From Escherichia coli O157:H7 (GTDB lineage: Bacteria; Pseudomonadota; Gammaproteobacteria; Enterobacterales; Enterobacteriaceae), in assembly GCF_013167455.1 (NCBI RefSeq), contig NZ_CP038328.1: a DNA stretch of 64,000 nucleotides, one strand, 5' to 3'. This document shows, piece after piece, positions 2,063 through 3,674 of this stretch (position 1 is its first letter; every line of letters starts with the position of its first letter). The notes below the pieces were generated by a model. That model worked only from the letters and a program-made list of their open reading frames with translations. It was not told the DNA's origin and ran no database searches. The position numbers were made by a program, and so were the translations under genes.

Positions 2063-2469
2063 TATGGAAACGAAAAATCCCCCTGGAAGCACTGAATGCC
2101 ATGGGTGAAGGAAACATGGTGGGGTTACTGGATATTCGCTTTGAACATATTGGTGATGACGCCCTTGAAGCGACAATGCCAGTAGACTCGCGGACAAAGC
2201 AGCCTTTCGGGTTGCTACATGGAGGTGCATCCGTGGTACTGGCCGAAAGTATCGGTTCCGTTGCCGGTTATTTATGTACCGAAGGTGAGCAAAAAGTGGT
2301 TGGTCTGGAAATCAATGCTAACCACGTCCGCTCGGCACGAGAAGGGCGGGTGCGCGGCGTATGCAAACCGTTGCATCTCGGTTCGCGTCACCAGGTCTGG
2401 CAGATTGAAATCTCCGATGAGAAAGGGCGTTTGTGCTGTTCGTCACGATTGACGACCGCCATTTTGTGA
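2059..2469 (+). CDS. menI: 1,4-dihydroxy-2-naphthoyl-CoA thioesterase (hotdog fold), 136 aa
   Basis: 136-aa ORF; start overlaps ydiJ stop by 4 nt (ATGA); translation matches remembered YdiI/MenI; synteny. Confidence 0.85.
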   Translation: MIWKRKIPLEALNAMGEGNMVGLLDIRFEHIGDDALEATMPVDSRTKQPFGLLHGGASVVLAESIGSVAGYLCTEGEQKVVGLEINANHVRSAREGRVRGVCKPLHLGSRHQVWQIEISDEKGRLCCSSRLTTAIL

Positions 2470-2568
2470 CGTTGTCACCAGAAAAGTGTGACGCATATTG
2501 CTTTTGGTCATTATCTGCACAGTAAACGGTGGTATACTGTGCAGGTCTTGTCTAAAAGCGAGGATGCT

Positions 2569-2757
2569 ATGTCTACTCAACTTGATCCCACCCAGCTGGC
2601 CATTGAATTTTTACGCCGTGACCAGAGCAATCTTTCACCTGCCCAATATCTTAAACGTCTGAAACAACTAGAACTTGAATTTGCTGACCTGCTTACTCTC
2701 TCTTCTGCTGAATTAAAAGAAGAAATCTACTTTGCCTGGCGTCTGGGCGTGCATTGA
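2569..2757 (+). CDS. ydiH: Small uncharacterised protein YdiH (62 aa)
   Basis: ATG at 2569 preceded by aggatg; 62 codons to TGA; 89-aa track ORF is an upstream extension; synteny. Confidence 0.55.
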   Translation: MSTQLDPTQLAIEFLRRDQSNLSPAQYLKRLKQLELEFADLLTLSSAELKEEIYFAWRLGVH

Positions 2758-2982
2758 TCCTGACTTAATGCCGCAAGTTCGCCAAATCGACCTGGATTAA
2801 CCTCCGTCCAGGTTCGATGACCTTCTTAATACTGCTTATCTACCCGCCTGATATTGTTCAAAAATAATACTAATCGCAGTTTGTGTTAAAACGGCGGCTT
2901 AGCTTTATGAGATTATTCTTATCGTCCCTTCAAGAGCTAAGCCACTGAGAGTGCCGGAGATAAGCGCCGGATGGGGTAGAAA

Positions 2983-3020
2983 CCCTTAAGCCTGTGTCGC
3001 ACAGACTTAAGGGTTTTCTT
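2983..3020 (+). terminator. Rho-independent terminator hairpin (possibly 3' end of sRNA RydB)
   Basis: Near-perfect inverted repeat cccttaagcctgtg / cacagacttaaggg followed by ttttcttatttc on + strand, about 225 nt past ydiH stop. Confidence 0.5.
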
Positions 3021-3099
3021 ATTTCTGAACGCTGCACTTTTTTACCTATCTCTTAAATAGTCATTTTCAATACAACTTTTTCTTTTTCATCACAGCCTT

Positions 3100-3305
3100 A
3101 ATGCTCCTTAGATAATAATCATTATCTAACAATGAGATACCTAATTCTTAGCGTGCCTGTTAACCCACACATCAGGGTCTATGCTTATTAAAAGCAGGCA
3201 AAAAGCATGTTTTACGGTAAAGCCCCTGCCTTTGCTGGGTTGAACTGATAATCATTATCACTAACATGCTGTTATACGCTGAAAGCGATGAAGTGAGGTA
3301 AATCG
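3100..3305 (+). promoter_or_regulatory. sufA promoter/operator region with two Fur-box-like motifs
   Basis: gataataatcattatct at 3111-3127 and gataatcattatcactaac at 3247-3265, both resembling Fur consensus GATAATGATAATCATTATC; the second lies about 45-60 nt upstream of sufA ATG. Confidence 0.5.
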
Positions 3306-3674
3306 ATGGACATGCATTCAGGAACCTTTAATCCACAGGATTTCGCCTGGCAAGGCTTAACGCTGACACCCGCAGCCGCTGTCCACATCCGCGAGCTGGT
3401 GGCAAAGCAGCCGGGTATGGTCGGCGTGCGCTTAGGTGTGAAGCAAACGGGCTGCGCGGGCTTTGGCTATGTGCTCGACAGTGTTAGCGAGCCGGACAAA
3501 GACGATCTGCTGTTTGAACACGACGGCGCGAAGCTGTTTGTCCCGCTGCAAGCGATGCCGTTTATTGATGGCACGGAAGTCGATTTCGTTCGTGAAGGAC
3601 TTAATCAGATATTCAAATTTCACAACCCTAAAGCCCAGAATGAATGTGGCTGTGGCGAAAGCTTTGGGGTATAG
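3306..3674 (+). CDS. sufA: Fe-S cluster A-type carrier SufA
   Basis: 122-aa ORF with C-terminal CGCGESF motif; first gene of suf operon. Confidence 0.9.

Follow-up and report, generated by a model that had tools for sequence, protein, structure and literature searches.

What does the stable hairpin in the spacer between ydiH and sufA of Escherichia coli O157:H7 terminate, and is it part of the RNA that it helps to end? The stretch of DNA analysed here (the window, 64,000 nucleotides) carries, on the + strand, the gene order ydiJ, menI, ydiH, sufA and sufB according to the RefSeq annotation of an identical O157:H7 record. Both the RefSeq annotation and the list of open reading frames place the ydiH coding sequence at 2569-2757 and that of sufA at 3306-3674, both on the + strand. 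In the PGAP annotation of the identical O157:H7 RefSeq record, the spacer between them is without any annotated feature, rydB included. The O157:H7 strain ECP19-598 is 100% identical to the window over positions 2700-3320, and this stretch was found in 5421 of the 5426 complete E. coli genomes. A preliminary description of the locus, based on the DNA sequence, had pointed to a strong hairpin in the spacer, had argued that it is too far from ydiH to be an ordinary terminator of that gene, and had tentatively named it as the 3' end of the small RNA RydB.

The hairpin is present as claimed, with arms cccttaagcctgtg (2983-2996) and cacagacttaaggg (3000-3013), and is slightly longer than first described. 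With the flanking A/U pairs included, the stem-loop, which is delimited by sequence, fold and covariation, spans 2980-3016 on the + strand; it consists of a 5' arm (2980-2996) and a 3' arm (3000-3016) of 17 nt each that are 94% complementary and enclose the 3-nt loop UCG (2997-2999), the sole mismatch in the stem being C2991·A3005. The distances given for it hold as well: it begins approximately 223-226 nt past the ydiH stop (2757) and lies approximately 290 nt before the sufA start (3306). It is followed by the U-rich tract UUUUCUUAUUUCU (3014-3026, + strand), and a T-rich tail is present at this place in every species of the 26-species alignment described below. The 45-nt RNA from 2978 to 3022 has a predicted folding energy of -22.0 kcal/mol, compared with -6.75 ± 2.28 kcal/mol for shuffled sequences (z -6.69; none of 200 as stable), and the stem alone gives between -16.5 kcal/mol for the core and -22 kcal/mol if the A/U extension is included. 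Recomputed with a classical hairpin-plus-T-tract formula attributed to d'Aubenton-Carafa 1990, the terminator discriminant is +12.8 on the + strand versus +0.3 on the - strand. The element thus shares with Rho-independent terminators a stable stem-loop, a U-rich tract directly after it on the transcribed strand, and an A-tract 5' of the stem. Unlike typical Rho-independent terminators, it has a stem of 17 pairs with a rather A/U-rich lower half and one mismatch, and its U-tract is interrupted (four U, C, UU, A, UUU). Judged from this arrangement, release of the transcript would be expected within the U-tract at about 3017-3021. A simple promoter/terminator scan of 2400-3400 called no terminator, a false negative for which the internal C·A mismatch is presumably responsible; our own scan and a repeat finder both recover the hairpin. 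In a terminator scan of 2750-2985 nothing below -5.5 kcal/mol was found, and no credible terminator other than the hairpin lies between ydiH and the suf promoter.

In the 64-kb window, the hairpin is among the three strongest short-range inverted repeats, the others being the terminator of lpp and a hairpin in the leader of ydiH. The latter is a long imperfect hairpin at 2498-2561 (arms 2500-2527 / 2532-2559) and is, at the RNA level, stronger than the rydB hairpin (-36.2 kcal/mol, z -7.0). It begins where a promoter-like sequence, TTGTCA-16-CATATT (2472-2499), ends and stops just before the ydiH ribosome-binding site (GAGGA 2560-2564, ATG 2569).

The gene directly upstream of the spacer hairpin is rydB. 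Positions 2924-2984 on the + strand match the Rfam model RF00118 (rydB) over its full length (1-61) with 77.9 bits (E 1.3e-17), which exceeds the gathering threshold of 50 bits that defines membership in the family; the hairpin lies outside the model (2985-3016), sharing 5 nt with the matched segment. Using the conversion K-12 position = 1767692 - window position, the K-12 feature b4430, which is on the minus strand at 1764713-1764780 with sufA and ydiH on either side, corresponds to 2912-2979 (+ strand) and differs there at a single base. In other words, rydB occupies the same locus in O157:H7 as in K-12, between ydiH and sufA and co-oriented with both, and the hairpin is also outside the K-12 feature, beginning one base past its end. 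The alignment proposed in the preliminary description as a check, therefore, places rydB in the spacer, on the + strand and abutting the hairpin, and to this extent the tentative assignment is correct; the part of it that does not stand is the transcript ending near 3015, to which we return below. We define mature RydB as the 61-nt RNA from 2924 to 2984 (+ strand) based on the Rfam match, the 3' end mapped in K-12 and the covariation of its closing helix, P1, which is formed by 2925-2928/2972-2975. There are no differences between O157:H7 and K-12 across 2926-3118, hairpin included, and rydB itself differs only at position 2925, which is T in O157:H7 and C in K-12 and converts a C-G pair of the closing helix to U·G. 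The extent of b4430 (2912-2979) is offset from the 2924-2984 indicated by Rfam, by the conserved promoter spacing and by Term-seq. The RydB body is near-invariant across genera, yet it is only weakly structured by nearest-neighbour prediction: the predicted fold of 2924-2984 (-10.3 kcal/mol, z +1.5) is worse than that of most shuffled sequences. We note that rydB is an already known gene and the hairpin an already known kind of element, and neither is novel.

To place the hairpin in a comparative frame, we scanned one genome per species with a 20-mer from the RydB core and obtained 120 loci, of which approximately 117 are RydB-like, across the Enterobacterales. Divergent copies of RydB remain above the Rfam threshold, and some genomes carry at least two copies. 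In Escherichia, Citrobacter, Salmonella, Leclercia, Silvania and their relatives, rydB is found in the interval from menI to sufA, with the AACCCUUAAG...CUUAAGGGUU hairpin after it. The copies in Klebsiella/Raoultella, Enterobacter, Pantoea and Erwinia have other locations, and the hairpins that follow them are unrelated, shorter and GC-rich and have U-tracts; one Erwinia copy is flanked by a PTS-transporter-like and a LysR-like open reading frame, as judged from translations read by eye. Synteny was scored on matches to menI, sufA and sufB only, ydiH not being scored reliably. Among 116 RydB-family loci, 73% have a hairpin with a U-tract downstream on the RydB strand, defined as a single hairpin with dG <= -10 that is located within 120 nt and has 5 or more T among the 8 nt after it. 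The same test was positive for 22% of the reverse complements, for 9% of the stretches 400 nt further on and for 16% of the upstream stretches.

Several further loci from the scan deserve mention. Rouxiella, Serratia sp. M24T3, Pantoea and contigs labelled Martelella alba have at least two RF00118-type copies of distinct subtypes (locus pairs L023/L024, L027/L028, L031/L032, L066/L067, L020/L021 and L072/L073). Some of these copies are without a nearby terminator and lie approximately 70 nt before the start of a gene, as exemplified by L067 (...GAGGAAATTATGGCTATCAAAAAG). Three loci (L003, L040 and L069, from two Bacteroidales metagenome-assembled genomes and one other such genome) have the exact 20-mer and lack the rest of the RydB core, and these matches are probably due to chance or to coding sequence. 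In Enterobacter ludwigii (L044, 11658-12021), a match to the STnc100 sRNA lies approximately 125 nt from rydB on the same strand.

The stem itself was analysed in an alignment of 26 enterobacterial species with the suf-linked type of rydB, in which 13 pairs were scored. In this alignment, 95% of the cells are paired and five of the 13 pairs have changed on both sides, as in the double change from UUAAG/CUUAA to UCAAG/CUUGA. The observed level of covariation was reached by none of 500 shuffles, and if the partner is slid by 1-3 columns, only 27-54% of the cells are paired. The changes are unevenly distributed: six of the eight pairs of the lower stem are invariant and the remaining two have changed in one or two species, whereas the upper pairs covary freely. 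G·U wobbles on the + strand occur at six different stem pairs, while 10 of the 11 cells of the C·A type, i.e. a wobble on the - strand, are at one position of tolerated mismatch, which also accepts C·C. This pattern of wobbles argues that an RNA from the + strand, and not a DNA site, is under selection. The closing helix of RydB covaries as well (CCCC/GGGG, CUCC/GGAG, UUCC/GGAA). As in Rho-independent terminators generally, the hairpin is thus at the end of a transcription unit and its stem covaries, and the structure is conserved at the ends of orthologous and paralogous genes. Together, the comparative data assign the hairpin to the transcription unit of rydB, as its Rho-independent terminator. 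It is, as the preliminary description had argued from distance, not dedicated to ydiH.

The region 2864-2923 (+ strand) is a putative rydB promoter region, containing two blocks that are conserved in 72 RydB loci. The upstream block, AATAnT..GCAaTTnnTGTTAAAa at approximately 2864-2891, is conserved in these loci across many genera and contexts, likewise at a fixed spacing. The second block, TnTG(a)GAnnAT, is found at a fixed spacing before the first base of the RydB body. The copy in the window (2906-2916) has TG at 2908-2909 and GATTAT at 2911-2916 (TGnGATTAT, 2908-2916), followed by seven bases and then G2924. Read from this conserved spacing, the -10-like element would be an extended -10 promoter with a start at or next to G2924, and this start agrees better with the 5' end of the Rfam model than does position 2912 of the K-12 feature. 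TTGTTA was considered as a -35 partner of the -10-like element, but it would leave a spacer of 22 nt and was rejected. A sigma-54 reading of the GCA..TTGC sequence in the upstream block was also discarded, since its GG/GC spacing is 10 where 12 would be needed. The upstream block may instead be a regulator site or an UP-like element.

On the other side of the hairpin, the suf operon has its own promoter, which is controlled by Fur, IscR and OxyR. A Fur box of this separate promoter, TGATAATCATTATCA, is recognizable in the sequence at 3246-3260 on the + strand. Its position follows the sites reported by Lee 2004 and Outten 2004. The location of the Fur box downstream of the hairpin supports that suf is expressed from its own regulated promoter. 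A second Fur-box-like palindrome, GATAATAATCATTATC, is located at 3111-3126, approximately 135 nt upstream of the first; position 3119, which is T in O157 and C in K-12, improves the palindrome when it is T. This palindrome overlaps the promoter-like site ATCACA-16-GATAAT that is given for suf by Shimada 2014.

These data bear on three readings in which the hairpin would serve one of the flanking genes. If the hairpin terminated ydiH RNAs and RydB were cut from a long ydiH 3' UTR without having its own promoter, the lack of any other terminator after ydiH would be accounted for. However, the -10-like element and the upstream block are conserved in the 72 loci, many of which have none of menI, sufA and sufB in their flanks, and Shimada 2014 gives ydiH and suf separate promoters and rydB as a unit of its own, which makes an origin of RydB in the ydiH 3' UTR quite improbable. 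From the perspective of suf, a conserved structured RNA is followed by a terminator and then by an operon, all on the same strand, as in a riboswitch-like attenuator of read-through into sufABCDSE, and GGGGU (2972-2976) can pair with ACCCU (2982-2986) before the 3' arm has been made. This alternative fold, however, is no better than that of shuffled sequences (z +0.95). The pairing is broken in Leclercia and Silvania; the change from GGGG to GGAG has a compensating change in the closing helix, whereas the terminator arm has none. In other words, there is no conserved pairing of the mutually exclusive, antiterminator kind that characterizes riboswitches and leaders. Moreover, suf has the Fur/IscR/OxyR-controlled promoter described above, in Salmonella and C. 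braakii a distance of 1.9-2.3 kb separates rydB from sufA, in Salmonella with an opposing gene in between, and many members of the RydB family are nowhere near suf. Taken together, we regard attenuation as very improbable. The near-perfect palindrome of 37 bp could also be imagined as a DNA site that is bound by a dimeric regulator and marks the far upstream limit of suf control, and it lies approximately 20 bp upstream of the reported OxyR-binding region. Yet the changes in the stem keep pairing and not sequence, G·U wobbles included, the upper stem and the loop vary freely in length and sequence, and equivalent hairpins follow RydB genes that are away from suf; a DNA site is, therefore, scarcely credible.

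Given a terminator that belongs to rydB, the question becomes where the RNA ends. Adams et al. 2021 (eLife) mapped 3' ends by Term-seq in K-12 MG1655 grown in LB to OD 0.4, in LB to OD 2.0 and in M63, and list one rydB 3' end, 1764708(-), with a printed 61-mer ending ...GGGGUAGAAACC; this end is entered three times, apparently once per growth condition. The K-12 coordinate corresponds to position 2984 of the window, which is five bases into the 5' arm of the hairpin and 9 nt past the closing helix of RydB, and it coincides with the end of the Rfam model. The 3' end data are from K-12 and not from O157:H7, although the two sequences are identical over 2926-3118. Thus, the dominant end falls at the base of the stem, and the short + strand transcript ending near 3015 that had been predicted for this locus is not what the K-12 data reveal. 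The end is also a very prominent one. Its scores in two of the three entries are 2,174,030 and 4,136,120, compared with 0.9-2.2 M for tmRNA, 1.2-3.9 M for CsrB, 0.4 M for 6S RNA and 7.5-8.6 M for 4.5S RNA (Adams et al. 2021), and they are 12-50x those of the lpp terminator in the same table (0.08-0.18 M). No other 3' end is listed between menI and sufA in K-12, but the list is curated to one peak, the highest, within any 100 bp. A weaker peak in the U-tract approximately 35 nt downstream would drop out of it; for this reason, we abandoned a reading in which the missing call at the U-tract meant that no termination occurs there. A minor, long isoform of RydB that ends in the U-tract is possible. 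Two RNAs in the same dataset illustrate the alternatives. The dominant end of CsrB, an RNA that keeps its terminator, maps to the U-tract (Adams et al. 2021). By contrast, the dominant end of rnpB, 3270216, is the mature end (Adams et al. 2021), and the canonical rnpB terminator AAAAACCCGCUUCGGCGGGUUUUUGCUUUU begins 8 nt downstream of it. RydB resembles the latter: Its dominant end is upstream of the loop of its terminator, and not in the U-tract as in RNAs with an Hfq-type 3' end or at typical Rho-independent terminators, and the U-tract (3014-3026) lies downstream of the mature end at 2984. In a literature search on RydB, we found no paper discussing its 3' end or terminator.

The position of this end bears on two further readings that concern the fate of the hairpin in the RNA. 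In the usual layout of enterobacterial Hfq sRNAs, the hairpin would be kept as the 3' end of a functional RydB of approximately 94-105 nt. The position of the hairpin is typical of sRNA terminators, rydB of Salmonella is given as 1450415-1450519, i.e. 105 nt (Sittka 2008), RepRanger associates rydB with a Rho-independent terminator, and a minor peak less than 100 bp from the main one would be absent from the Term-seq list. However, the dominant end in K-12 is at 2984, where the Rfam model also ends, and CsrB illustrates that an RNA that retains its terminator ends in the U-tract in these data. RydB is, in addition, classed as Hfq-independent, and in the original Northern analysis of 2001 it reportedly gave a band of approximately 60 nt. 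Term-seq thus contradicts a retained hairpin as the main 3' end of RydB and leaves room for it in a minor isoform at most, and overall we consider this reading improbable. A reading that is compatible with a terminator role is that the stem is mainly a processing signal, e.g. an RNase III substrate, whose cleavage gives rise to the end at 2984. This would fit with the location of the end inside the stem, after C2984 and 12 pairs from the loop, with the presumed efficient removal of the hairpin despite its stability, and with the contrast between a lower stem (AACCCUUAAG/CUUAAGGGUU) whose sequence is conserved in Escherichia, Citrobacter, Salmonella, Leclercia and Silvania and an upper stem and loop that drift. 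On the other hand, 17 pairs are short for RNase III, the conservation of the lower stem may simply reflect terminator strength, and rydB in Klebsiella, Enterobacter, Pantoea and Erwinia uses unrelated, shorter GC hairpins, which argues that no particular stem sequence is required family-wide. A stem that serves mainly in processing, therefore, appears unlikely to us, although less so than a hairpin retained in the mature RNA.

Based on these considerations, we suggest that the hairpin and its U-tract are probably the Rho-independent terminator of the rydB unit and that this terminator is absent from the dominant mature RNA. In this model, transcription would start at approximately G2924 from the conserved extended -10 promoter, and RNA polymerase would cross the 61-nt RydB body and stop in the U-tract at approximately 3017-3021. 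RNAs that read through from ydiH would stop at the same hairpin because there is no earlier credible terminator. Termination should be constitutive because the full RNA from 2924 to 3022 is predicted to fold with the closing helix of RydB and the terminator both present and without competition between them. The end of RydB at 2984 implies that the hairpin is presumably removed from a precursor, as is the case for RNase P RNA and tmRNA. Specifically, the terminator would be cut from a short-lived precursor by an endonuclease, and trimming by a 3' exonuclease would proceed to 2984, where 9 nt remain after the closing helix, the last 5 of them from the 5' arm. As a consequence of termination, the suf promoter just downstream would be shielded from the very active rydB promoter, helping to keep suf silent when it is repressed. 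What the data show directly is the hairpin with its covariation, its association with RydB genes and, in K-12, the position of the dominant 3' end; that transcription stops in the U-tract, that a precursor exists and is processed in this way, and that suf is insulated are steps that we infer. Some observations count against this model. The U-tract is interrupted, and rydB of Salmonella is annotated as 105 nt, a length that would take in the hairpin. Also, a hairpin of -22 kcal/mol normally protects a 3' end, and its complete removal, therefore, needs an endonuclease.

The transcripts of rnpB, ssrA, ffs and ssrS shed their 3' trailers via endonuclease cuts and exonucleolytic trimming. The removal of such trailers from stable RNAs is said to have been described in two studies from 1995 and 1998. 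RydB is similar to the precursors of rnpB/M1 RNA, tmRNA and 4.5S RNA in that its mature 3' end is just upstream of an intrinsic terminator and in its very high abundance in Term-seq; it is different in that its end is inside the 5' arm of the stem and not in a single-stranded spacer, and in that the RydB precursor and the nuclease are presumed. Compared with the 3' modules of Hfq-dependent sRNAs, the rydB gene similarly ends in a hairpin and a U-tract, but the dominant RydB has neither the hairpin nor the tail. RydB is grouped among the Hfq-independent sRNAs, and in Hfq co-immunoprecipitation from Salmonella, where it is annotated as 105 nt without a Northern size, it was enriched 2.5-fold (Sittka 2008). 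This weak link to Hfq fits such an RNA because the dominant RydB lacks the U-tail of the terminator. In Salmonella, RydB is among the sRNAs that are most strongly repressed by ppGpp, together with SsrA and SsrS.

For the cloning or deletion of rydB, annotation of which is missing from the O157:H7 RefSeq record that we examined, the terminator is best treated as a separate, adjacent element that would also shield the suf promoter. Beyond this, we tentatively speculate, at less than even confidence, that RydB is not a conventional base-pairing sRNA but a very abundant stable RNA that is processed as rnpB RNA and tmRNA are, with a disposable terminator that is cut by a specific endonuclease, for which the lower stem AACCCUUAAG/CUUAAGGGUU would be the processing determinant in the Escherichia-Citrobacter-Salmonella clade. 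If so, the near-invariant 61-nt RydB body, for which an effect on rpoS is the sole reported function, would act via a protein partner or a tertiary fold. By analogy with the housekeeping RNAs, the mismatch between terminator and mature end together with the tmRNA-like read counts suggests that RydB may mature like one of them, and this type of maturation would provide a modest, testable lead on an sRNA that was discovered about 25 years ago.
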